Positions 1-62,649 of a stretch of DNA of 64,000 bases are shown here, one piece after another; the first letter of the stretch is position 1, and each line of letters starts with the position of its first letter. The notes below the pieces were generated by a model. The model was not told the DNA's origin and did no database searches. It was given only the letters and a program-made list of their open reading frames with translations. The DNA is taken from contig NC_086108.1 in assembly GCF_963921235.1 (NCBI RefSeq), forward strand, positions 83,764,001 to 83,828,000, given 5' to 3'. Source of the stretch: Mobula hypostoma. Lineage: Eukaryota. The translations under genes and the position numbers were made by a program.

Positions 1-2558
1 TCAGAAAGTCAGAAGGCATGGGATCCAGGGAAATTTGCCAGGTGGATTCAGAATTGGCTTGCCTGCAGAAAGCAGAGGGTCGTGGTGGAGGGATTACATT
101 CAGATTGGAGGGTTGTGACTAGTGATGTCCCACAAGGATCTGTTCTGGGACCTCTACTTTTTGTGATTTTTATTAACAACCTGGATGTGGGGGTAGAAGG
201 ATGGGTTGGCAAGTTTGCAGATGACACAAAGGTTGGTGGTGTTGTGGATAGTGTAGAGAATTGTTGAAGATTGCAGAGAGACATTGATAAGATGCAGAAT
301 TGGGCTGAGAAGTGGCAGATGGAGTTCAACCCGGAGAAGTGTGAGGTGATACACTTCGGAAGGACAAACTCCAAGGCAAAGTACAAAGTAAATGGCAGGA
401 TACTTGGAAGTGTGGAGGAACAGAGGGATCTGGGGCTACATGTCCACAGATCCTTGAAAGTTGCCTCACAGGTAGATAGGGTAGTTAAGAAAGCTTATGG
501 AGTGTTAGCTTTCATAATTCGAGGAATAGAGTTTAAGAGTGGCGGGGTAACGATGCAGCTCTATAAACCTCTGGTTAGACCACACTTGGAGTACTGTGTC
601 CAGTTCTGGTCGCCTCACTATAGGAAGGATGTCGGAGCATTGGAAAGGGTACAGAGGAGATTTACCAGGATGCTGCCTGGTTTAGAGAGCATGCATTATG
701 ATCAGAGATTAAGGGAGCTAGGGCTTTACTCTCTGGAGAGAAGGAGGATGAGAGGAGATATGATAGAAGTATACAAGATGTTAAGAGGAATAGATAGAGT
801 GGACAGTGAGTGCCTCTTCCCCAGGGCACCACTGCTCAATACAAGAGGACATGGCTTTAAATGTAACCCCACTTTTTAAAAAAGGAGGGAGAGAGAAACC
901 GGGGAATTATAGACCAGTTAGCCTAACGTCGGTGGTGGGGAAACTGCTGGAGTCAGTTATCAAAGATGTGATAACAGCACATTTGGAAAGCGGTGAAATC
1001 ATCGGACAAAGTCAGCATGGATTTGTGAAAGCAAAATCATGTCTGACGAATCTCATAGAATTTTTTGAGGATGTAACTAGTAGAGTGGATAGGGGAGAAC
1101 CAGTGGATGTGGTATATTTGGATTTTCAAAAGGCTTTTGACAAGGTCCCACACAGGAGATTAGTGTGCAAACTTAAAGCACACAGTATTGGGGTTAAGGT
1201 ATTGATGTGGATGGAGAATTGGTTAGCAGACAGGAAGCAAAGAGTGGGAATAAACGGGACCTTTTCAGAATGGCAGGCGGTGACTAGTGGGGTACCGCAA
1301 GGCTCAGTGCTGGGACCCCAGTTGTTTACAATATATATTAATGACTTGGATGAGGGAATTAAATGCAGCATCTCCAAGTTTGCGGATGACACGAAGCTGG
1401 GCGGCAGTGTTAACTGTGAGGAGGATGCTAAGAGGATGCAGGGTGACTTGGATAGGTTGGGTGAGTGGGCAAATTCATGGCAGATGCAATTTAATGTGGA
1501 TAAATGTGAAGTTATCCACTTTGGTGGCAAAAATAGGAAAACAGATTATTATTTGAATGGTGGCCGATTAGGAAAAGGGGAGGTGCAACGAGACCTGGGT
1601 GTCATTATACACCAGTCATTGAAAGTGGGCATGTAGGTACAGCAGGCGGTGAAAAAGGCGAATGGTATGCTGGCATTTATAGCAAGAGGATTCAAGTACA
1701 GGAGCAGGGAGGTACTACTGCAGTTGTACAAGGCCTTGGTGAGACCACACCTGGAGTATTGTGTGCAGTTTTGGTCCCCTAATCTGTGGAAAGACATCCT
1801 TGCCATAGAGGGAGTACAAAGAAGGTTCACCAGATTGATTCCTGGGATGGCAGGACTTTCGTATGAAGAAAGACTGGATGAACTAGGCTTGTACTCATTG
1901 GAATTTAGAAGATTGAGGGGGGATCTGATTGAAACGTATAAAATCCTAAAGGGATTGGACAGGCTAGATGCAGGAAGATTGTTCCTGATGTTGGGGAAGT
2001 CCAGAACGAGGGGTCACAGTTTGAGGATAAAGGGGAAGCCTTTTAGGACTGAAATTAGGAAAAACTTCTTCACACAGAGAGTGGTGAATCTGTGGAATTC
2101 TCTGCCACAGGAAACAGTTGAGGCCAGTTCATTGGCTATATTTAAGAGGGAGTTAGATATGGCCCTTGTGGCTACGGGGATCAGGGGGTATGGAGGGAAG
2201 GCTGGTGCAGGGTTCTGAGTTGGATGATCAGCCATGATCATAATAAATGGCGGTGCAGGCTCGAAGGGCCGAATGGCCTACTCCTGCACCTATTTTCTAT
2301 GTTTCTATGTTTCTATGGGTTGGGAAGTTCAAGGGGGATACTAGAGGAAGATTTTTTACTCAGAGAGTGGTTGGTGCGTGGAATGCACTGCCTGAGTCAG
2401 TGGTAGAGGCAGATACACTAGTGAAATTTAAGAGACTACTAGACAGGTATATGGAGGAATTTAGGGTGGGGGGGTGTTATATGGGAGGCAGGGTTTAAGG
2501 GTCAGCACAACATTGTGGGCTGAAGGGCCTGTACTGTGCTGTACTGTTCTATGTTCTA
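1..2558 (+). mobile_element. CR1-clade LINE (family B), ORF2 reverse-transcriptase 3' part, interrupted at 861-2316 by another CR1
   Basis: ORFs 82-267 and 271-879 carry [19 protein letters not shown] and RPHLEYCVQFWSP. Host sequence resumes at 2317 (GKFKGDTRGRFFTQRVV) and ends in a TTCTATG tail. Colinear with the copy at 27306-28050. Confidence 0.93.
861..2316 (+). mobile_element. CR1-clade LINE (family A), 5'-truncated, nested in family-B CR1
   Basis: ORFs 806-1636 and 1649-2218 form a CR1 RT ([37 protein letters not shown]) split by one stop codon; ends in (TTTCTATG)n. Confidence 0.95.
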
Positions 2559-2963
2559 CCTTTAAAGGTGACTGCTTCATGTAGATATACTAATGTACTT
2601 GAAATCCATATCTATAATATATTCTGGTCAACACATGGAATTATAATATTGTAGCTATTAGTGGGACCTGGTTGCAGGAGGGGTAGGACTGCAGCTCAAT
2701 ATTCCTGGAGTTCTGCTGTTTGAGAATGATGGAGTGGGAGGGATTAAAGGAGGAGGGTGTTGTTACTAGTCAAGGAAAATGTAACAGCAGTACTCAGTCA
2801 GGACCAACCGAAGAACTCATCTAGTGAGGCGTTATGGGTGGTAATGAGGAATAAGAAATGTATTATGATACATTTATAGGTCGGGTCTGTGGGTTGAGAT
2901 TCTAAATTGGAGAAAGACCAATTCTGATGGCATCAGAAAGGATCTGGCAAAGGTGTATTTGGT

Positions 2964-4018
2964 TCACAAAGGTCCACTGCTGTTCACTCTGCTGACCCAC
3001 GACTGTGCTGCAACACACAGCTCGAATCACATCATCAAGTTTGCAAAAGACACGACTGTGGTGGGCGTCATCAGCAAGAATGACAAGTCAGCATACAGAG
3101 AGGAGGTGCAGCGGCTAACGGACTGGTGCAGAGCCAACAACCTGTCTCTGAATGTGAACAAAAGAGATGGTTGTTGACTTCAGGAGAGCACGGAGCGACC
3201 ACGCTCCATTGAACATTGACGGCTCCTCCGTAGAGATCATTAAGAGCACCAAATTTCTTGGTGTTCACCTGGTGGAGAATCTCACCTGGTCCCTCAACAC
3301 CATCTCCATAGCCAAGAAAGCCCAGCAGCATCTCTACTTTCTGCAAAGGCTGAGAAAAGTCCATCGCCCACCCCCCATCCTCACCACATTCTACGGAGGA
3401 GGTATCGAGAGCATCCTGAGCAGCTGCATCACTGCCTGGTTTGGGAATTGCACCATCTCGGATCACAGGACCCTGCAGCAGATAGTGAGGTCAGCTGAGA
3501 AGATCATCGGGGTCTCTCTCCCTGCTACTACAGACGTTTACACCACATGCTGCACCCGCAAAGCTACCAGTATTGCGAAGGACCCCACGCACCCCTCAGA
3601 CAAACTCTTCTCCCTCCTGCCATTGGGCAAAAGGTACTGAAGGTTTCAGACTCTCACGACCAGACTGTGCAACAGTTTCTTCCCCCAAGCCATCAGACTC
3701 CTCAATACCCAGAGTCTAGACTGACATCTACATCATTTATTATTATATTGTAATTTGTCCTCCACTGTGCCTATTGTCTTGTTTATTAATTATTGTACTG
3801 CCCTGCACTGTTTTGTGCACTTTATGTAGTCCTGTGCAGGTCTGTAGTCTAGTGCAGTTTTTATGTTGTTTTATGTAGTCTAGTGTAGCCTTGTGCTGTC
3901 TCACACAGTCTAGTGTAGTTTTGTGTTGTTTCATGTAGCACCATGGTCCTGGAGGAACGTTGTTTCGTTTTTACTGTGTACTGTACCGCAGCTTATGGTC
4001 AAAATAACAATAAACTTG
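2964..4018 (+). mobile_element. Rex1/Babar-type non-LTR retrotransposon, 3' part
   Basis: PLLFTLLTHDC...IIKFAKDTTVVG...AYREEV and KFLGVHL...[10 protein letters not shown]...[13 protein letters not shown] motifs; AATAAACTTG end; flanks ATTTGGT (2957-2963) and ACTTGGT (4019-4025) are a likely TSD. Confidence 0.88.
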
Positions 4019-19135: not shown

Positions 19136-20982
19136 AAAGTGCTGACTATTGTTTTGCCTCCACAGTCGCTTCCTGGCCCACAAAGCTCTTCCAGCAGTTT
19201 GCTTTTTGGATTTTATTTCTTATTTTATTTCATTCAAGTCCTCTTGCCTTCCTTCTCCATAATTGAGGGGTAAATTTAATGGCAAAATTATTCAAGCATT
19301 GTTAAGGCATAACAGATAGTAATCTAGAAAATAGGATTACAGTGTAGTTCAACATTGCAATCTTCTCAAACTGCATATTGTGATAAAGTAGTGTAGCCCC
19401 CTCACCGGGCTCATCAGCCAGCTCTGCTAACAGCCACGTGACTCAGCTGTGAAATGGCCACCTTTCAGAAACAATATTATGTCTAGGGTTGGCATGATTT
19501 GGAGGTCATCCAAACAGGAATGTCTTGATGTTCTGATAAAAGAAACCTTGAATGCTGTGTAAGTATGGCCCATACACAGTTATTGGGTGGCAAGAAATAA
19601 CAGATTGTACACCACATAAAATTATAAAGGAAGAATATTTATTAATTTCAGCTTTATCAAACAGCTATTAAGAGAAAGAAAAGAAGGAAAAAATAAAAGG
19701 GTTTATAGTTAAACCAGTGGAAATGTGCACACAGCATTGGAGCTTGTATCTTCCAAAACTGGGTATTTGGGGGTATACCTCCTACTCAAGGGCCAGATCC
19801 TTGGTCTGCGTGAAAATACCCGCCACCTTTTCAAACTCCCCTTGAAGACCATCTCAAGCAAATTAGCTCTCTCTCTCATGAGTATTGCCCTTCCTCCTTG
19901 CAATTCCTGCAACTGAGTCTCTCCTTCCCATGCCATTCTGAGGCATCTTCCCTCCTGTCCTCTCTGCAGCTCCCACCAAAAGACCCCAAACCAGACTGCT
20001 GTCCATCACAAATCCCTGTCCACCCCACTCTCCCTAGAACTTTCTCCCAGTTCCACCATCCTGATTGGCTAACACACCATTCCTAAGTTGAACAGCAGGG
20101 ATTCTTATATTTAGCCAAAACCAAAATACTCTACCAACAGGACACACTGCTTTTGCAGAAAATGCTAAAACGAAATATCTACAGCTTAGCAGTAGAAATC
20201 TTAACCAGGACATTATAATAGGAAAAACAATTTTTCTTTCAACATCTATTCTTTCTTTCTCATAAACTTGCTATTTATACTGTAATTGTTCGATTGTACA
20301 ATGTGGCTGATATATGAAAAGCATTGGCTGTTTAATTGATATCTTTTTGAGAAGATGGTCTGAACCCAAGCCTACTCTGCAGAAATTGGTACAGTTTTGT
20401 TGCTGTCAGAAATTGGGGTAAAATCTGATGATGATCTGAAGGATGACAATGGTGGCCAGAGAAATGTTTCAGGTCAAAGATGTTTCCATCAGATATCTGA
20501 AATTGTGATAGAAGTTCATTGATCCAAAGTGCTAATTCTGTGTCTTTCTCTATAGTCTGAAAATCCATGGGCGAGGACTGGAATCGCTGAAGTTCTGGAG
20601 TCAGACAACACACGCAAAATGCTGGAGGAACTCAGCAGGCCAGGCAGCATCTAGGGAGGGGAATACGTAGTTGATGTTTTGGGCTGAGACCCTTCTTCAG
20701 GACTCAGAGGTCAGTCTTGATGTGTGAGTGGGTGGAGTGTGGTGAGTAGGACGAATGTGAAATAGGCTTGTTTTGCAGTTGTTATCTTCCTGCTATTTTT
20801 GTTGTTGTTGTTGCTAGTCTGTAGTTCTGTGAAACATTGTGGGTATGTTATGTTGCCACAGGAAGTGTGATAACACTTGCTGACTGCCCCCAGAACATAT
20901 TTGGGTGTGCTGGTTGTTAATGCAAACAACAGATTTCACTATTTGTAAATGTGATAAATAAATCTGAATCTGAATATGAACT

Positions 20983-23645
20983 TGTAGTGCAATATTTAAG
21001 TAATATTTGATTAATCATGAATATATGTTTATTTGCTGATTAAGCATTCTTGTTCATTTAAATAATTCGTTATGAGTTATACGCATAAATAGGTGAATTG
21101 CATACATCATTACATTACCACGTGATACTTATGTGTTTTGTTTAAAGTAAACTCGAAGTTAGACTCATGTTTCGGACTTTTGTGTCTTCCTTTGAATTTG
21201 TTTTGATGTTTTGAAGTTACAAAAAGTAACAGTGGTGACCAGGTATTTTAAAAATGAACCTGAGGTAGCTGTTGACCTGCTGAAGTGCAACAAAATGTCT
21301 GAGTTCAAAGAAAAGAGTAGTGAGGAACAACGGGTGAAAAAACAAACCTAGCATGTGCAGATTCTGTCAAGTTAAAAAAAAAGGCAGTAAGTGGAAGAAT
21401 TCATGGGTTCAGAATGAGTGAGTACAGGAAAGTGATAATAATAATATTTTAAAAAGCAGAATTGGCTGGCTATTTCGGAAAGTTTGATGAATTTGATTAC
21501 ACAGTGAGTAACTGGCTCATATATACTGAGCTAATTCAATAATACTTTGATACAAATGAAATAGCCAATGAGAAATGAGTACCTATTTTGCTGAGTGCAT
21601 TGGGTTTAAAGGCACAGTTTGCTTTAAAGTTTAACTGCTCCAACCAAACCAGCTGAAATGATTTTTACTGAAATTGTCAAAGTAGTGCAGGAATATTTAG
21701 AAGTGAAGCCATTATTGATTGCAGAATGCTCTATGTTTCATAAATGGATTCAAAAAGAAGGGGTGTCCATTTCAACGTATGTGTCTGAATTGATGAGATT
21801 GTCTGAGCATTGACAGTTTGGCGATGAGCTTAATGATGCTCTGAGAAATCATTTAATTTGTGGAACCTTACAAGGAAGCATTCAAAAATGTCAGCTAACT
21901 GAAGCACAACCTACATTTAAAAGAGCAGTTGAAGTTGCTTTATCAATGGAAACAGCAGACAGAGACACAATTAAGCTGTAGTCAGGGATGTATTTGTTAA
22001 GTTGTAGTTGTAGTGAGTGTGAACAACATTACCAAGTATACAGAAACTAGCACGAATGAAAAAATTGTTTTAAGTTTGTTGGCAGGGGATCATATACACC
22101 AGTTCAATGCAGATTTAAAGACGAAATTTGCAGAAAACCCACAAAGTAGGACACATACGAAGAGCCTATCAGTTGGACGAAAATAAGTGGTCTGCTCAGG
22201 GAAGAGAAAAAGCTAAAATGTCAAGTTGCCGTCTCAAATAGAGCACTAATCTGCACACTGTTGATGACAATTCCGATAATGATGAGAGTGACGTGGGACT
22301 GTGTAGCCTTGACATTTACCGTGTGAAAATTAATAATAGACAAGCAATATTGCTGACACCAGAAGTGAATGGGAAATTAATTAACAAAGAATTGGATTCT
22401 GGTTCAGCTGTTTCAGTCATTTCACAAAATGAATTTGAATGGTACTTCAAAGATATTGAACTGAGGCCTACAGATATCCAACCAAGAACTTATACTGGAG
22501 AAAGGATAACTCCTTTGGGAATGATCTTCATAACAGTAAAACATAACAACCAACTAGCCACATCAGGCTCGTAAGTAATAAAACCACAAGGACCTGCATC
22601 GTGGGGATTTGATTGGCTGAGATAACTACAACTTAATTGGAGATCCATCCACCATTTGCATGCCACATCCCCTGCAATGAAACCAACCGAAAGTGAATTA
22701 AGAAAGGTATTGGATGATGCCATAACTGTCCCAATGCCGAACACCCTGAATCATTGCCCCACAGAGGGCAAATAGGTGTTGGTGCCAAACTCTGTGCTTC
22801 TGGTTGGAAAGCATATTGGACCAAGAAAGGACCAGGTTGCTCAGAGGAAGCATGAAAAGTGATGAAAGCAGTGGTCTGACTACAATAGTTTTTTACTTGT
22901 GCAGTGTGGCTTGTTTTTAAATTGGAAGAGAATTTCATGAGCTTCAGGAAAGCTGCAAGCATCCTGCTTTTGTGAATATAAGGAACGAGAATCTACTCTG
23001 CGTGCATAAAGGTTAGTGCACGAACTTCACGTGGGAGACAAAAAGCTGTTTGTAGATGCAATTACCAAAGCCTATTTAGATGAATGGAAGGCCTTAAAGA
23101 AAGGAATGAAAAGAACTACAAAAACAGAGGTTTTGTCAGATGATGTTGTGGATGAGGAAATCAAGAGGAGAGATCAGATTGTAAAGGGAGCAATAGAAGG
23201 ATTAATAAGAGAACACGCCAGTGAACAAAATGCATCTTCCCAAGATCAAGATGCAAAATCTAGATGAATAAGTAGGGAGAAGAAGGAGAATAAAGTTGGC
23301 TAGCACGATCCTGAGATTACTTCCTGCAATCTCAGAGTCAATACCGAAAACCACCACGGAGGAGGCCCCTGAACCTGGGATTGTTTTCGCAGCCACAAGC
23401 CTCACTTAACAAGTAGAGTGATCCCCTTTGTCAGTAATGAAGTTATCTCACAAGAGTGAGAAATCCTCCCTCAGTGATTAAATCTTTAGGCGTGAATGGA
23501 ACAATTTAAAATTTATTGTGCTGTGGACATCTGTACGTGATATGTGTACACTTCTCTTAAAGTAAGCTCAAAGTTAAATTCACATTTCGGTCTTCCATGC
23601 CTTCCTTTGAATTAGCTCAATGTTTTAAAGTTACAAAACATAACA
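20983..23645 (+). mobile_element. Internally deleted Gypsy/Ty3 LTR retrotransposon
   Basis: 5' LTR TG...CA at 20983-21231; PBS-like TGGTGACCAGG; decayed gag from about 21460; protease-like ELDSGSAVSVI (ORF 22293-22574); partial 3' LTR about 23535-23645; flanks GAACT and GGACT (4/5 TSD). Confidence 0.88.
22730..23317 (+). pseudogene. Decayed coding fragment of unknown origin replacing pol inside the Gypsy element
   Basis: Not colinear with the two sister Gypsy copies. 83-aa ORF 23016-23267 plus an upstream frame broken by stops; AATAAA about 20 nt after the stop. Confidence 0.55.
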
Positions 23646-38055: not shown

Positions 38056-39697
38056 CAAGGTTTCGGCGTCTTGTCCTGTCCTTGTGCCTCGCCCAGCCCA
38101 GGAGTACCATGTCCTGCCCAGGAAAGCCTCGAAGAATCCAAACCTCATCCAGTACTGTAGCCACGTCATGTCCTCACCTAGTTCTGGGGTCCGAGTCCGA
38201 GTCAAGACCCAGGTTCTGGGTCCTTGTCCAGTCTCTGGCTTGGAGTCCAGGCCCAGGCTCCTAGTTCCTGGTCCTGCTTTCTTAGCCAAAGTCCTAGCCC
38301 AAGTTTGTGTTCCTGTCCCAGCTCCTGGTCTGAGTCCTGTCCCATTCCTTGTACCTCAGTGTCTGTGTCTTACATTTGGGTTCGCCTTCACACCCCCTTA
38401 TGACATCCACCTTCCCATCTTCAATTCCCCACTCTGCTCCTCCTCATTCCTCTTCTGCTATGGTCTACTCTCCTCTCCCATCAGATTCCTTCTTATCCAT
38501 CCCTTTGCCTTTTCCATCTATGACCTCTCAGCTTCTTGCTTCATCTCACTCCCCCACCCTCCTGGCTTTACCTATCACCTTCTAGCCTGTCCTCCTTGTT
38601 CTCCCCCCACCTTCTCCCCGCCCCCATTTTCCCCTTTTCTCTTCAGTCCTGATTAGACATTTCGGGCCAAATTGTCGACTACTTATGCCTCTCCATAGAC
38701 GCTGACTGATCTGCTGAGTTCCTCCAGCATTTTGCGTATATTGCTCTGGATTTCCGGCATCTGCAGAATCTCTTGAGTTTATTCTTTATTTTAACTTTGC
38801 TTGTATTCTGTTTCTGTTTAGAGCTCCCAGACTTTGTGAAAACAAGTTATCAGGATAGTCACTGCACTTACAACGTGATTGAAAAGGGTTTCATTACAAG
38901 TATCAGCTCTACAAAATCATCTGGGGAAAAAATAAAGTAAGTCTCACATACTGGAAAATGGGGGAAAAAGAATGATAAGAAACATAGAATTGGTTGTTGA
39001 GGTCCATATTAAATTGAATATTTTATTAGACGGGTTCTGGGGCTGTTAATGTTTCTACTTTTTGATTCAGCAGAACAAAACTAATGGAGACCACTGCAGA
39101 AAAAAAGGAGAAAGCACCAAAAAACATTTAAGGAGCTTTTAGATAAAATCTGGGGAGGAAAAGCAAATGATTGATAATACTTATGTACAGTTTTACATAC
39201 TGACAGATAGGCACTATGCATATTCCATTAGTGACACCACTGTAAGAAAAAGAAATTAAAAAATATTAAGTACGTTAGTAAACACAGCAATTAACATGTT
39301 CAGTTGCAGCAATAACAATCAATAAAGATATTAGGGTCACTCAGCTATGTTTCAAGAAATTCATTGCTAACCAGCTGTGTAAGGCACACTACAGATCTGT
39401 GTCATTCAAATCAATGTGATGAATTTCAGATGCAAAGTATAATGCACTGACGTGACCACAATGTCTGAGTTTCCGAGGAGGTCTGTACACCACGTGTCTG
39501 AGGGTTTCATGTTAGAACAGTACAGTCATCAGGCCTAATACTACATTGACACACATTTGATGAAGAAGGCAGATGAGTGGCATTCAGGCATGGGAAGGAG
39601 TGTACAAAAGGCTCATTTGATTGAAAGAGCCACAAGAACAGACTTTAAGCATCTTCCTAGCAGGATCATTACAAAATGGTTTCATGAGAATGATCAT

Positions 39698-42600
39698 TGT
39701 TATGTTTTGTAACTCCAAAACATAAAACTAATCAAAATAAAATCATGGAGGGTCCAGAATGCAAGTCTTAGTTTCATTTGTACTTTAAGTGAGGCAGGCA
39801 CATATATGACGTGGTGGCATGATGACGTATGCCATTCACATACTTTTATATAAAACCAACAATGCATTACATTAACAACAAAGAATGCTGAACAACAATA
39901 TATTTACAGTATTACTCAAATATTACTGAAATATTAAGTACACAACACTCGTCCCTGTTCAGCTATAAACTTCAATTCAATACAAAATGCAACTCAAATA
40001 TTTTCTGACGGGGGGTGGGGGGGGCAGTCACTTTGTTTGGCAGGTGAAACTTGTGGCTGTGAAACAATCTTGGGTTCTAGAGCCTCCTCCATGATGGTTG
40101 TAGGAGTTGACTATGAGTCTGCAGGAAGTGGTTCTGACAGATTGGATGCATTTCTGCTGGATGTGTTGGCATCCCGAACAGAGTACGGCGAGCTGCTCAA
40201 TCTGCTGGTCTATCCCAGGCCACCAGACAAAGCTTCGAGCCAACACTTTCATTTTGCCCATGCCTAGATAACTGGCATGTTGCTTTTCCAACAACTTAGC
40301 TCTCAGCTTTTAATAGAAACATAGAAAATAGGTGCAGGAGTAGGCCATTCGGCCCTTCGAGCCTGCACTGCCATTCAGTAAGATCACGGCTGATCATCCA
40401 ACTCAGAACCCTGTACCTGCCTTCTCTCCATACCCCCTGATCCCTTTAGCCACAAGGGCCATATCTAACTCCCTCTTAAATATAGCCAATGAACTGGCCT
40501 CAATTGTTTCCTGCGGCAGGGAATTCCACAGTTTCACCACTCTCTGTATGAAGAAGTTTTTCCTCATCTCGGTCCTAAAAGGCTTCCCCTTTATCCTCAA
40601 ACTGTGACCCCTCGTTCTGGACTTCCCCAACATCGGGAACAATCTTCCTACATCTAGCCTGTCCAATCCCTTTAGAATTTTATACGTTTCAATAAGATCC
40701 CCCCTCAATCTTCTAAATTCTAAAGAGGATAAGCCTAGCCAATCCAGTCTTTCATCATTTGAAAGTCCTGCCATCCCAGGAATCAATCTGGAGAACCTTC
40801 TTTGTACTCCCTCTATGGCAAGAATGTCTTTCCTCGGATTAGGGGACCAAGACTGCACACAATACTCCAGGTGTGGTCTCACCAAGGCCTTGTACAACTG
40901 CAGTAGAACCTCCCTGCTCCTGTACTCAAATCCTCTTGCTATGAATGCCAGCATACCATTCGCCTTTTTCACCACCTGCTGTACCTGCATGCCCACTTTC
41001 AATGACTGGTGTATAATGACACCCAGTTCTCGTTGCACCTCCCCTTTTCCTAATTGGCCATCATTCAGATAATAATCTGTTTTCCTGTTCTTGCCACCAA
41101 AGTGGATAACCTCACATTTATCCACATTAAATTGCATCTGCCATGAATTTGCCCACTCACCTAATCTATCCAAGTCACCCTGCATACTCTTAGCATCCTC
41201 CTCACAGCTAACACTGCCGCCCAGCTTCGTGCCATCCGCAAACTTGGAGAAGCTGCATTTAATTCCCTCGTCTAAGTCATTAATATATATTGTAAACAAC
41301 TGGGGTCCCAGCACTGAGCCTTGTGGTACCCCACTCGTCACTGCCTGCCATTCTGAAAAGGTCCCGTTTATTCCCACTCTTTGCTTCCTGTCTGCCAACC
41401 AGTTCTCTATCCACATCAATACCATACCCCCAATACCTTATGCTTTAAGTTTGCACACTAATCTCCTGTTTGGGACCTTGTCAAAAGCCTTTTGAAAATC
41501 CAAATATACCACATCCACTGGTTCTCCCCTATCCACACTACTAATTACATCCTCAAAAAATTCTATGCGATTCGTCAGACATGATTTTCCTTTCACAAAT
41601 CCACGCTGACTTCATCTGATGATTTCACCGCTTTCCAAACGTGCTGTTATCACATCTCTGATAACTGACTCTAGCACTTTCCCCACCACCGATGTCAGGC
41701 TTACCGGTCTATAATTCCCCGGTTTCTCTCTCCCTCCTTTTTTAAAAAGCGGCGTTACATTAGCCACCCTCCAATCCTCAGGAACTAATCCAGAATCTAA
41801 AGAGTTTTGAAGAATTATCACTAATGCATCCATTATTTCTTGGGCTACTTCCTTAAGCACTCTGGGATGCAGACTCTCAATCTCCGCATAAGACAATCCT
41901 TGTCAAGGACAAGTTCATCCCGGTGCTATTAAAAATGGGGGACCTGGAATTTCTGCTGCACATTCCAGCCATTTTGGATGGCCATGTAGATCTGGGACAG
42001 TGGGAGGGTCTTTTCTGGTTTCCCTTTGGATCATCTCAGACATCAGAGGGAGACTTTCAATTTTCATTAGGAAGAATATGTCAAGAGGAGTGTCCTCTTT
42101 TATAAATTTTTCATGTATTTCCTTGTCCAAGGGTAAATGGGACAATTCATCAGCACGTCCATGATTAGCTGTCTTCTAGAATTTGATCTTATAGATGTCT
42201 CCTCCAAGAAACAGACCCTACCTCTGTATTTCTGCTGCTGCTGTCAGTGGAACAGCCTTCTCTGGATTGAAAATAGACACTAGTGGTTGATGATCAGTAA
42301 TGAGGGTAAACTCTCTCCCATACAGGTACTGGTAGAAACCTTTCAAAATCCAAACCAGACTCGAGGCCACTTTGTCAATCTGTGCATAATTTTTCTCTGC
42401 TGCGATAAGGGAATGTGATACAAAGGCTACAGGGTGTTCATTTCCATCAATCATAACATGTGACATGACTGCACCTGTACCATAAGGTGAGGTGTCAGAG
42501 GCAAGCTTCACTGGACCATGTGAGTCAAGGTCTGAAGTCAGCACATTTCCTTTACATTTTTGAAAGCCACCTCACACTGCTTTGTCCATTGTCCTTTCTT

Positions 42601-45600
42601 CCTAATCTGTAGTAATGAATTCAAGAGGTGGAGCACAGTAGCCAGGTTTGGTACGAACCTGTTACAATAATTGACAAATCCTAAAAAGGACCACAACTGT
42701 GACATGCCTTTTGGCCTTGGGGCACCTACCGCTGCTTGAATTTTCTCAGCATACCTTACTAATTCTTGTGCATCAATGGTGTGAACGCAATGAGTGATGC
42801 TTACTTTAAAGAATTCAAACATGTGTTGTGCTCTGAGCCCATAATCTTCTGATCTTTTTAACAATGACGTGAGATTTTGGAGATGTTCCTTGTCATCCTT
42901 ACTGGTAACATCCTTACTGGTACATCCAGGTAACACAGTTCCTGGGCAGCCTTGCAGCACCTAGTTCATAGCTTTCTGCCAGAATACAGGTGGAGATGCT
43001 ACCCCAAAAATAAGTCTATCATCGCCATAAAGCTCTTAATTAGTGGTAATAGTGAGAAATATTTTAGATTCTTCTTCCATCTCTAACTGTAAGTCCACTT
43101 TGCTGAAGTGGTTTCTTTCAGAAAGGTTTCCAAAGATATCCACTATCCTGGATAGGGGGTATTGATCTACTTTCAGTACAGGATTGATGATGACCTTAAA
43201 ATCACCGCAGGTCCTGATAGACCCATTCTTCTTAGCTACTGAGACCACTGGTGTTGCCCATGGGCTCCACTCAGACCTGGAAAGAAGTTCTCCAGCCTGT
43301 CTTAATTTCTTTTTTAAAATTGATTTTGCCTGCTTTCCATTTTGAATCTAGTTCACTGGCTACTTTATCATGGATGGTGTAAGGAACTGGACAGACTTTG
43401 TAAAATTTGGGTGTGGCAATTTCATTTAACAGAATTTTACCCTTGATATGTTGGAGTTTTCCAATGTCATCCATGAACACCGCATTGGCTTCCTCCAGTA
43501 CCTTTCTTAACTTTCTTTCAGTTGACTGTTTTGCAGGGATTCTGACAAGCAAATGGTGGATCAATCTCCAGTCAGGTTGTAGTTATCTCAGCCAATTACA
43601 CTCCCATAATCCCGGCCCTCCTGTTTTTACCACGTAGAAGCCCAATGTGGCTGGTTGGTTGTTGTATTTCACTGTTATGGATGTCATTCCTACAGGAGTT
43701 ATTTTTCTCCAGTATAGGTTCTTAGTTGGATATCTGCAGGCTTCAGTTCAGTATCTTTGAAATGCCATTCAAAGTCATTTTGTGGAATGACTGCAACAGC
43801 TGAGCCAATGTTATTTTAATTAATTTGCTGTTCACTTCTCTTGTAAGCCATGTTGCTTGTCTATTGTTAGTGTTCACACATAAAACTCAAGAGTACTCAG
43901 TCCTGCATCACTTTCATCATTACCAGATTTTTCATCAACAGCACACAGAGTAGTGCTCTTTTTGAAACTGCAACTTGACTTTTTATCTTTATCTCCTCTC
44001 GGAGTATCTATTTACAGTATTTATGTCTGCCTGACATGCTTTTTGTATGTGTGCTATTTTGTTGTATTTTCTGTGAGTTTCACCTTTAAACCTGCATTGG
44101 TCTGGTGTATGTGAGCCACTGCCACAACGATAACACTATTTGTTTGCCCAGGCCAGTTTCTGCTTAGATTTGCAATTCTGTGCATGATCATTCATTCCGG
44201 ACCTCAACCTAATTGCATCTGTCTGCTTTTTCCATTGATATAACTACTTCAACTGCTCTTTAAAATTTATGTTGTGCTTCAGTTAGGAGACATTTTTGAA
44301 TGCTTTCTTGTAAGATTCCGCAAGGAAAATAATTTCTCAGTGCATTACTAAGCCCAGCAATGAGTGATAAACTGACAATGCTTAGACAATCTCTTAAATT
44401 CAGCAATGTACACAGTCAACAATGATTTTGGTTCTAAATGTCCCTGTATTACTTTCATGCTATCAGCAAAGCTCGGTTTGGCTGGTTTGCTTGGAGCAAT
44501 TATAGTTCTAAGCAAGCTGTATACTTTAAATCTAATGCACTCAGCAAAATTGCCACTTGCTTTTCATTGGTTATTTCATTTGCTTCAAAGTACTGCTCAA
44601 TTCACTCACTATACAATGTCCAGTTATCTCTTGTGCAATCAAGTGTGTCCATGTTCCGATGTAGACAGCCATTTCTGTTTTTTTTAATTTATGATTATTA
44701 TCATCTAGTATTCACTAGTTATGAACCTGTGAATTTGTTCATTTTCTGCCTTTTTTTGTAACTCAATCACCTTTCCTCTTGTGAAGAAAATATACTGCTC
44801 CGAAGAAAAAAAAAACATGCTGCACTTTTTTTAACACAATTGTCTCACTGCACTTCAACAAGTAGGTAGTCATCTCAGGTTCATTTAAAACTTCCTCATC
44901 GCCACTGTTATGTTTTGTAACTCCAAAGCATAAAACTAATCAAGGTAAAAGCACGGAGCCAAGAGATAACTCATTTTTGTTTGTTTTACTTTATGTGAGG
45001 TGCCCACTCATCACATGGTGAATTGATGACTTATGCCATTCACATACTTTTACATATCACCTGTAAAGAATTCTTTCAAAACTTCAAAGATTCAAAGCAC
45101 ATTTATTACCAAAGAATATATCTATTATACAGCTTGAGATTTGTCTGCTGACAGGCAGCCACAAAGCAAGAAAGCCAAATAACCCGACTTTTTAAGAAAA
45201 GAAAGAACAGAAGCCGCTGCACAGAGAAAGAGAGAGAGAAGCACATATAAATCATGCAAGTAATAGAAGCAAGCTAACGGTATTCTGAACCAGCCTAAGT
45301 CCCAGATACGCTCCTGGAGCAGCCGGAGTGGGCCGGAGCAGAACAGCTGGATCAGTTCACAGCCTCGGTGCCACGGAAAAAGGAATGAACATTTGCGGCA
45401 GAGCATGCAAAATTAGCCCAATCCTTGCCTCCATTCCAGACTACCTGTGCCAGCATTTAAAGTGCCCAAGCACCAGGTAGTGCCTCGTTCTAGGTCCCGG
45501 ACCCCCCAGCACCACAATGCGCATGGGCCACCAAACCCAAGGCTATTGTTGATCTCATCAAATCGGCTCAGTGCTTGGAGTAACCAAACCTCACACCTAG

Positions 45601-59558: not shown

Positions 59559-61078
59559 TGCTATGTTTTGTACCTCCAGAAACTAATCACAAGAAAAACA
59601 CGGGAACTTGTCTACCTCGTTTTCTTTAGTGAGGTGCTCACATATGACGTGGTGACATAATGATGAATGCCATTCAGATACCTCTTACATATATCCCATA
59701 ATGTTCTATGTAAACAAACAAAGGATGCTTAATGTACAATATAATTACAATACTACTCAAAAATTACTGAAATATTAAATACACTACCCACCTCCCTGCT
59801 TAGCTATAAACTCCAACTCAATATATAATGCATCTCAATTCAAACATGCCATTCAGGCCTAAGGATTTAATGGCTGTGGAGCATTTCTTACTCTTGTGGG
59901 ATAACGTCTTTCCTAAGGAGGTGGGGATCACTCTACTTGGCAGGTGAGACTTGTGTCTGTGGAACAATCTCAGCTTCTGGGGCCTCCTCCATGGTGGTTG
60001 TAGGAGTTGAATCTGGGACTGCAGCAAGTGGTTCTGACAGCTCTAAACACTTTTTTCTCTCTAGCAATTGGCTCTGCTGTCCTCAGCTGACCAATGTGCT
60101 GAGGAGAGCAGAGCAAAATGACATCAGACACAATCTCCATTGTATAGGAGAGTGGTCCAGTTCTGTCCTTAATCTTTCCAATGTACCCACTTTTGATCAC
60201 CTCTGTAGTCCATCGCCAGGATTGCTCGTCTAGGAGTGAAACATCAAAACTCCTTGTTGAGGAGCCCTCAGTTAGTCTCAGCTGTTTGTCCTGCAGACTC
60301 CTCCTGACACTGGGTTTGAGGAGATCAAAGCGTGAGTGCAAGGGACAAACCACAATTGGCATGGCTGGTGAATTGTTGGTTGTGGAGCACGCTGCTCTTG
60401 GCATCTTCCGGACATGTTGGAATCCCGAACAGTACATGGCAAGCTGTTTGATCTGCTGATCTATCCCAGGCCACCAGACAAGACGTCGAGCCAATGCTTT
60501 CATTTTGACCATGCCTAGATGACCAGCATGTAGCTCCTCCAACACTTTAGCTCTCTGCTTGGATGGTACAATAACTTTCAATCCCCACATAATGCAATGC
60601 CCGTAAAGAGCAAGATCTTCTCGATGCTGTTAAAAATTTCTGCTGCACATTCCAGCCATTTTGGTTTACCATGTAGACCTGAGACAGTGTGGAGTCTTTT
60701 CTGGTTTCCCTTTGGATCATCTCTGCCATAATAGGGAGACTTTTGGTTTGCATTAGGGAGAATATGTCAAGAGGAGTGTCCTCTATTTGTAAAATTTTCA
60801 GGAATTTCCTTTTCCAAGGGTAAACAGGACAATATATCGGTATTTCCATGATTAGTTGTCCTCTTGAATTCAATCTTGCAGTTTGTGTTCTCCAAGAAAC
60901 AGAGAAACAGAGCCCCTCTCTGCACTCGTGCTGCTACTACGAGTGAAACACATTTCTGTAGGTTGAAAATGGACACTAGTGGTCGAGGATCAGTAATAAG
61001 GGTAAACTCTCGGAAAGCCTCCTCATACTGCTTTACCAATTGCCATTTCTTCCCGATCTGTAGTAATGAGTTCAATGA
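59559..61078 (-). mobile_element. Gypsy LTR element 3' part (LTR about 59559-59787, polypurine tract, RNase H and integrase remnants), abutting a CR1 3' fragment at 61079-61353 (+)
   Basis: ORF 59970-60590 (VLEELHAGHLGMVKMKALARRLVWWPGID); LTR homologous to 39698-39946. Confidence 0.88.
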
Positions 61079-62649
61079 GTGGAAGGTGAAAGGTGAAATG
61101 TTTAAGGGGAACATGAGGGGAAACTTCTTCACTGAGAGAGTGGTGCAAGTGTGGAGCGAGCTGCCAGCGCAAATGGTGGATGCAATTTCGATTTCAACCT
61201 TTAAAAGTTTGGATAGTACATGGGCAGCAGGGGAGTGGAATGCTATGGTCCAGGCACTGGTATATGGGACTAGGCAGTTTAAATGGAGTAGCATGGACTA
61301 GATGGGCCGAATGGCCTGTTTCTGCACTGTAGTTTTCTATGACTCTGTGACTCTGCTAGCTGGAAGGGGCAAGATTTTAATGCAGTCCACAGCACTTGTG
61401 ACAAAGAAAATATCAAAAGGGAAAAAAATAGGAAGTCCTAATGCTTACTCTGTCAATGATGGCTAAAGTGCATTGTGACTGATAACATTTGCATTAAGTA
61501 AACCCATTCAAAGCTATTAGTTGGAGCATGGGCCTTGATCTATTTTCCTTGTGTGTGTACCTGTGGGGTGCTTTTGATTTTAAGGAAAAATAGAAAAATG
61601 TACTACATTATTTTTTTAAATTAGCTTTTTTTTTGCTGCCTGTAACCTGCCAAAGCCATCTTGGAAACTTTGATGTAATTTGCTGTACCATGTCACGCTG
61701 ATCAGACTCGTGTTTTGTGTTTAGACTTTCAGTTTGGCACAGCATGTTGCTGGAGAGATAAACTTATAAAATCAGAGTGAGGGAAACCAAATAACGGCAG
61801 CTGGGCGAACAACCGTACGGCTCCTTTACTCATCAGCTTGTGAAATTAGTGACTGAGCTGGAGATGCAAAACAGAGTTGGCAAATTTAATACCAGATCAA
61901 GTGGAGAATGAAAAATAAAAAGAAGGAAGGAAATATTGGCTTCAGTTAGAAGAAAATGAAGGAAGGCTCAGAGTGTTGCTGAGGACTCTCACTGATTTTT
62001 ATAGACCCACCGTAGATCTCCCAGTGCATCATAGCAGTGATGGAAACTGCTCTATCAGGATTGCAAGAAGATTGCAGAGTGTTGAATTTACTATCCTATC
62101 CATTAAAAAGACTAATTTCACCTCCAATGATTCTGTCTGCAGTTCTCACTGCCTTGGGAAGGCAGCCAACGTAACCAAAGACCCTTCCCACCCTGGCCAT
62201 CCTCTCTTCCATCAGGCAGAATATACAAAAGTCTGAGAATATGTGTCACTGAAGTCAAGGACAGCTATCCTGCTGTTATATACTGTATGTAACTCATAAA
62301 GGAACCTTTTATATGCTAAAGATGAACTCTTCATCTCTCAATCTTTCAATAAAATGCTCTTACGTTTTATTTGCCTACCTGCGCTGAACTTTCTCTGTAG
62401 CTGTAACATTATTTTTTGCATTTTTTTAATCTTTTGCACTACCTTGATGTATTTGTGCATGGAATGAACTGTTTGGATGGCATGCAGACCAATGCTTTTC
62501 CCTGTATCCCAGTATATGTGACAGTGATAAACCAATTACCTGAAGGAATTGTCATACAACTGTTAGTTTTCAATGCCAGAGAGGTTGTTTATCAGTAACT
62601 AACAATTTAACACACCATGCCATCAAAGGACACGGAATGAAAATTTTTA

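Follow-up and report, generated by a model that had tools for sequence, protein, structure and literature searches.

Acutely transforming retroviruses are defective, helper-dependent elements that carry host cDNA in gag-onc fusions. Retrocopies of host genes mediated by LTR retrotransposons are also a published mechanism in animals (Tan et al. 2016, Genome Res 26:1663, PMC5131818). The part of that paper drawn on here gives a median of 6 bp for the microsimilarity at switch points, with more than one site for only two Drosophila retrocopies and 18 sites for nine retrocopies, and cites two further captures: maize Bs1, which holds pieces of three genes, and HERV-K/FAM8A1, a single case as described there (PMC5131818). 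We report here a Gypsy-type element that spans about positions 20983 to 23645 of the window (the whole 64,000-nt stretch of DNA that was analysed) and whose insert derives from the mRNA of RBM25. A literature search for an RBM25-carrying retrotransposon, retrocopy or pseudogene in sharks or elasmobranchs returned none, a Repbase or Dfam entry not being excluded.

Anatomy of the element and identity of its insert

The 5' LTR (20983–21231, forward strand, ~250 nt, TG...CA) aligns with the other LTRs of the family; a PBS-like TGG comes after it, at 21233. It is preceded by GAACT (20978–20982, +), likely the left copy of a 5-bp TSD recognised by eye, which shares 4 of 5 letters with the right copy, GGACT, and whose placement is approximate because the 5' end of the LTR is degenerate. 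A decayed Gypsy gag with a zinc knuckle, together with the aspartic protease as far as the PR-RT linker, occupies 21370–22717 (+; 72% identity with the sister copy at 44763–43486). In copies L022, L023 and L027, what we take to be the zinc knuckle and the LDTG motif lie in one frame, and the gag-asp_proteas profile was matched in L027 with an E-value of 0.0013, under the curated cut-off. On the other side of the insert are the C-terminal tail of the Gypsy integrase with the 3' untranslated part (23295–23520, +; 79% identity with 60029–59849 and 76% with 40129–40028) and, placed by alignment, a remnant of the 3' LTR (23528–23645, +) that has lost its first half and ends in ...CATAACA, followed by GGACT. 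The 5' LTR and this remnant are 79% identical over 91 nt.

Two relatives of the element are present in the window. The sister copy (39695–45079, minus strand) retains remnants of RT and RNase H and has lost most of its integrase; its PR-RT-RH-INT domain order, read by eye, is the basis for the Gypsy (Ty3) label. A LINE inserted in it at 40313–41761 is 94% identical to positions 860–2308 of the window. A third, fragmentary copy (59620–61083, minus strand) keeps more of the integrase and served to place the 3' junction. The window element aligns with the sister copy over 21370–22722 (72%) and again past 23319, and the insert between is unmatched; the preliminary description of this DNA, which had Gypsy sequence stopping just after the protease and an insert unlike the sister copy, was right on this point.

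The alignment to host exons identifies the insert (22718–23294, +) as a piece of spliced host RBM25 mRNA that includes the RRM region. It comprises the end of exon B, a 48-nt exon X, exons C, D, E and F (RRM), an internal deletion and the start of exon I, these letters being labels of our analysis and not standard exon numbers. Six contiguous host exons follow one another without introns, with 483 of 568 aligned letters identical (9/10 in B, 39/48 in X, 111/125 in C, 47/58 in D, 128/155 in E and 149/172 in F), corresponding to 81–89% per exon from X to F; the earlier view of an intronless insert of coding origin is thereby confirmed. The preliminary description had also looked to a spliced host parent as a check, and an intron-containing RBM25 gene with exon limits AG/GT was indeed found in the same genome (G000:C1:99.79-99.84 Mb), where it was located using the C-terminal part of gar RBM25 as query. 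A PWI family search matched two other genes and not RBM25. Heptranchias RBM25 is the top match to host exon C (89%, against at most 79% for bony vertebrates), an indication that the DNA comes from a cartilaginous fish. Exon X is in frame (L039:8586-8633 on the minus strand, G000:C1:99832586-99832633) and was included in the captured mRNA; it occurs in the Heptranchias protein and in none of the Xenopus, gar and paddlefish proteins compared.

In a protein database search with one cargo ORF, the best 120 of 174 matches were vertebrate RBM25 or unnamed RRM models, and every named protein among these best 120 was RBM25. RRM_1 was matched in five of six cargo ORFs taken from other copies, and above the curated cut-off in two of the six. 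An ORF of copy L012 matched PABP only, a candidate rejected as a generic RRM.

In the window the host reading frame of the insert gives VLVPNSVLLVGKHIGPRKD..., and the N-terminal half of the peptide first proposed (GAKLCASGW...) is off-frame; long open frames retained by other copies also depart from the proposed frame over its first half. The frameshift then placed near 22970 does not exist: relative to the host mRNA the window copy has gained 1 nt at 22855 and lost 46 nt after 22892 and 6 nt after 23051, and stops interrupt its host frame at 22773, 22938 and 23007. What had been read as a C-terminus of ~175 aa is an internal fragment; the parent does not stop at the TGA of 23265, its frame continuing beyond. 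Likewise, the AATAAA taken for a poly(A) signal (23289–23294) belongs to a one-letter variant of GAGAAGAAA, the sequence of the 3' junction, and was seen by eye in 1 of 26 copies, that of the window.

Junctions and proposed capture

At the 5' junction, uninserted copies read GATGA-TGCCACA-GCAGTG, the host mRNA reads CTCC-TGCCACA-ACTGTC and the chimeras read GATGA-TGCCACA-ACTGTC. The putative switch point is thus a 7-nt microhomology, TGCCACA (TGCCATA in the window, 22718–22724, +), common to Gypsy pol and RBM25 exon B; the host mRNA and 9 of the 20 uninserted copies have it exactly, and BLAST of these uninserted copies against the host mRNA gave no match. At the 3' junction, uninserted copies read TTGTTA-GAGAAGAAA-GGTGTC, the host reads AAAAG-GAGAAGAAA-AGGGAT, and in the chimeras the left side of the host is joined to the right side of Gypsy at a 9-nt microhomology (GAGAAGAAA; GAGAATAAA in the window, 23286–23294, +) common to RBM25 exon I and the integrase tail. 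The foreign block once placed at 22730–23317 is real, but its limits are not those given: host sequence extends from the microhomology at 22718–22724 to that at 23286–23294, and Gypsy resumes at 23295 instead of about 23318. The fusion of protease to RBM25 is in frame, being open across the 5' junction in copies L016 and L018, and the 3' junction is, by eye, out of frame with the integrase tail.

The microhomologies at both junctions (7 nt at 22718 and 9 nt at 23286) fit template switching and lend support to the early suggestion of a capture of this kind by an LTR element. The switch event itself is inferred from the anatomy of the junctions, and an RBM25 cDNA joined by DNA-level microhomology repair would leave a similar scar. 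The longest copies track the host mRNA into exon I, to position 1233–1235, over ~1.07 kb and eight exon junctions; the original capture measured ~1.07 kb, and its RE-rich part was lost in later subfamilies.

We consider it highly probable that a fragment of RBM25 mRNA replaced most of the Gypsy pol through two template switches and was then propagated in trans as a passive passenger. RBM25 mRNA would have been co-packaged in a particle, where RT would have switched onto it at one microhomology and returned to the Gypsy template at the other, yielding a product that would keep both LTRs, the PBS and gag-protease. Intact relatives would have supplied RT and integrase for the chimera in trans, and repeated rounds of copying would have deleted the purine-rich RE region. 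While active, the element would have made a Gag-protease-RRM polyprotein.

Further rearrangements were observed at the 3' side. Three of 30 sampled copies (L124, L127 and L136) have no RBM25, and their integrase zinc-finger region is joined straight to the purine-rich 3' switch site, which on this ground may be a template-switch hot spot. With its two clean microhomologies and a 3' landing site reused by deletion derivatives, the family offers a natural test case for such hot spots. In copy L003 the RBM25 cargo rejoins Gypsy further upstream in the integrase than in other copies, so that this copy has recombined a second time, here with a relative that lacks the insert.

Family history, selection and rival readings

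The insert, which matches neither sister copy, is not unique: it belongs to a high-copy family, which the preliminary description missed. A search of its own genome with the insert gave 44 scored matches at 73–82% identity and 2,857 first-look candidates, 40 of them scored; a second first-look count gave 2,982. Among 29 other loci fetched, the same protease flank was found upstream in 27 and the same tail downstream in 25, and dispersed copies have one common 5' junction and differing flanks. Copies with the same junctions, which the preliminary description had proposed to count, were readily found: the exact 21-nt chimeric 5' junction occurs 180 times in the genome (reversed control 0), and its uninserted version 467 times. 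The exact junction is present in 5 of the 58 fetched copies, which scales the 180 occurrences to ~2,100 copies. This figure is probably too low, the 58 being the best-scoring matches, a choice that also biases ages and proportions. The copy number of the RBM25 chimera is thus estimated at 2,000–3,000. RBM25 is present in 7 of 30 family members sampled by position through the tail motif, in agreement with 180/647, so that the chimera makes up roughly a quarter of its parent family. The chimera has amplified as a non-autonomous LTR family. The LTRs of the family (~250 nt, TG...CA) are 67–85% identical within copies; two LTR ends are readable in 6 of 17 copies and not in the other 11. The 5-bp flanking repeats differ between copies, and their two sides share 4/5 letters in four of the six readable copies and 3/5 in one; the sixth, with 1/5, has no such repeat.

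Copies are on average closer to the host mRNA (distance 0.128) than to one another (0.168). Exon G is absent and two linked amino-acid changes are present in 24 of 58 copies, and another 19 retain exon G together with the host state; exon G with the two changes occurs in 7, its absence with the host state in 2, and 6 are mixed or unreadable, these proportions mirroring the two queries used. Such combinations indicate that copying went through several rounds and that nested deletions arose along the way. Among 30,005 pairs of non-adjacent derived alleles, none passed the Bonferroni threshold for linkage, which suggests that the family is close to star-like. Ahead of the 3' junction, copies L116 and L129 have a purine-rich stretch that resembles RBM25, with no RRM BLAST match within 1.5 kb, and are possible RRM-less derivatives. 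Locus L100 (G000:C96:22421549-22425158) has two adjacent cargo matches, a tandem internal duplication.

The best-surviving alternative to a passive passenger accepts the same capture but attributes the burst to the Gag-protease-RRM fusion, which would have aided the active element, for example in RNA packaging. We regard it as unlikely. It is favoured by the in-frame 5' fusion, by the deletions of the sampled copies, which take the RE-rich part and spare the RRM, and by the copy–host differences common to at least half of the copies, of which 20 are synonymous and 2 non-synonymous. However, retention of the RRM is built into our searches, where the RRM was the query, and much of the synonymous excess lies on the host side. 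The contig of the most distant outgroup, run X16, has the letter of the copies at 9 of 10 readable common synonymous sites (10 of the 20 were readable, one being covered but not listed as different, and X16 is a single contig on exon F), and the Heptranchias protein agrees with the copies at one of the two common amino-acid differences. The common differences are therefore mostly changes of the host gene since capture, for which selection on the cargo is unneeded. Counts over 58 copies (host positions 172–768, CpG sites excluded) go the same way: singleton changes are 103 synonymous to 411 others for 127:456 sites (P=0.34), the intermediate-frequency classes (99:298, 49:137 and 6:25, synonymous to other) are neutral, and the markers that separate the subfamilies, at host positions 753 and 754, are non-synonymous. 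We found no purifying selection acting on the RBM25 frame of these 58 copies, where a star-like burst with few internal branches leaves the test little power. As far as tested, the cargo behaved as a passenger and its decay is neutral. Were the fusion helpful after all, it would be the retrotransposon counterpart of oncogene capture, with a gain to the element, and improved packaging or copying would be the way in which a defective element reached a quarter of its family.

Divergent spliced pieces with 9–26 other letters were found in runs X7, X11, X13 and X14, which are guessed to be RNA; they are consistent with the presence of the RBM25-carrying family in the organisms of these runs. At three sites where the copies match X16, runs X7, X11 and X13 mostly have the host letter, which makes it likely that the capture came before those organisms and the host separated. 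The family is apparently old and common to more than one species. Its cargo copies preserve an older state of RBM25 and can date splits among cartilaginous fish.

Very unlikely, in our view, is that a processed RBM25 pseudogene, made by a LINE, landed in a Gypsy copy or was joined to one by recombination at the DNA level, and that the hybrid then spread. LINEs are abundant here, one of them lying at 40313–41761 in the sister copy, but the cargo is an internal fragment devoid of the 3' end, and neither poly(A) nor TSD was seen at its limits in the window copy and the family copies examined. Both LTRs are kept, and RT, RNase H and most of the integrase are replaced by the RBM25 piece and not interrupted by it, with limits in the PR-RT linker and the integrase tail that both fall on microhomologies. 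An endogenous RNA-virus fragment or an unrecognised gene has a negligible probability: the two peptide halves of the preliminary description, searched with X in place of each stop, hit neither a Pfam family nor anything meaningful in PDB, but one of them is off-frame and the right frame is that of RBM25, to which all named top matches belong and whose intron-containing parent, 81–89% identical per exon (X to F), lies in the same genome, so that from the original choice between host mRNA and RNA virus the endogenous viral element is refuted and a transduced host mRNA is retained.

Comparison with known captures

A single LTR-mediated capture can thus place thousands of copies of a conserved splicing-factor domain in a vertebrate genome, well above the numbers of the published cases considered here, and the RBM25-carrying copies will cause errors in the masking of repeats, in RBM25 annotation and in read mapping. 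Like acutely transforming retroviruses, the chimera is defective, would depend on helpers and carries its host cDNA as an in-frame fusion downstream of gag; unlike them, it shows neither env nor an infectious phase, and its splicing-factor cargo bears no sign of selection. As in Bs1 and HERV-K/FAM8A1, host cDNA occupies an LTR element in the place of its own genes, whereas a single gene and a very large vertebrate family are involved here (cases as cited in PMC5131818). The closest resemblance in structure is to the retrocopies of Tan et al. (2016), as far as the part of that paper drawn on describes them: a partial spliced mRNA stands in place of the internal ORFs, the hallmarks of poly(A) and LINE activity are absent, both LTRs are kept and secondary retroposition proceeds as a non-autonomous element (PMC5131818). 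The microhomologies of 7 and 9 nt compare with a median microsimilarity of 6 bp in that study. In contrast to the retrocopies described there (PMC5131818), one capture has here led to an estimated 2,000–3,000 copies, with deletion subfamilies and an old age. The mechanism is therefore a known one, and it is the scale and the age of this family that are unusual.
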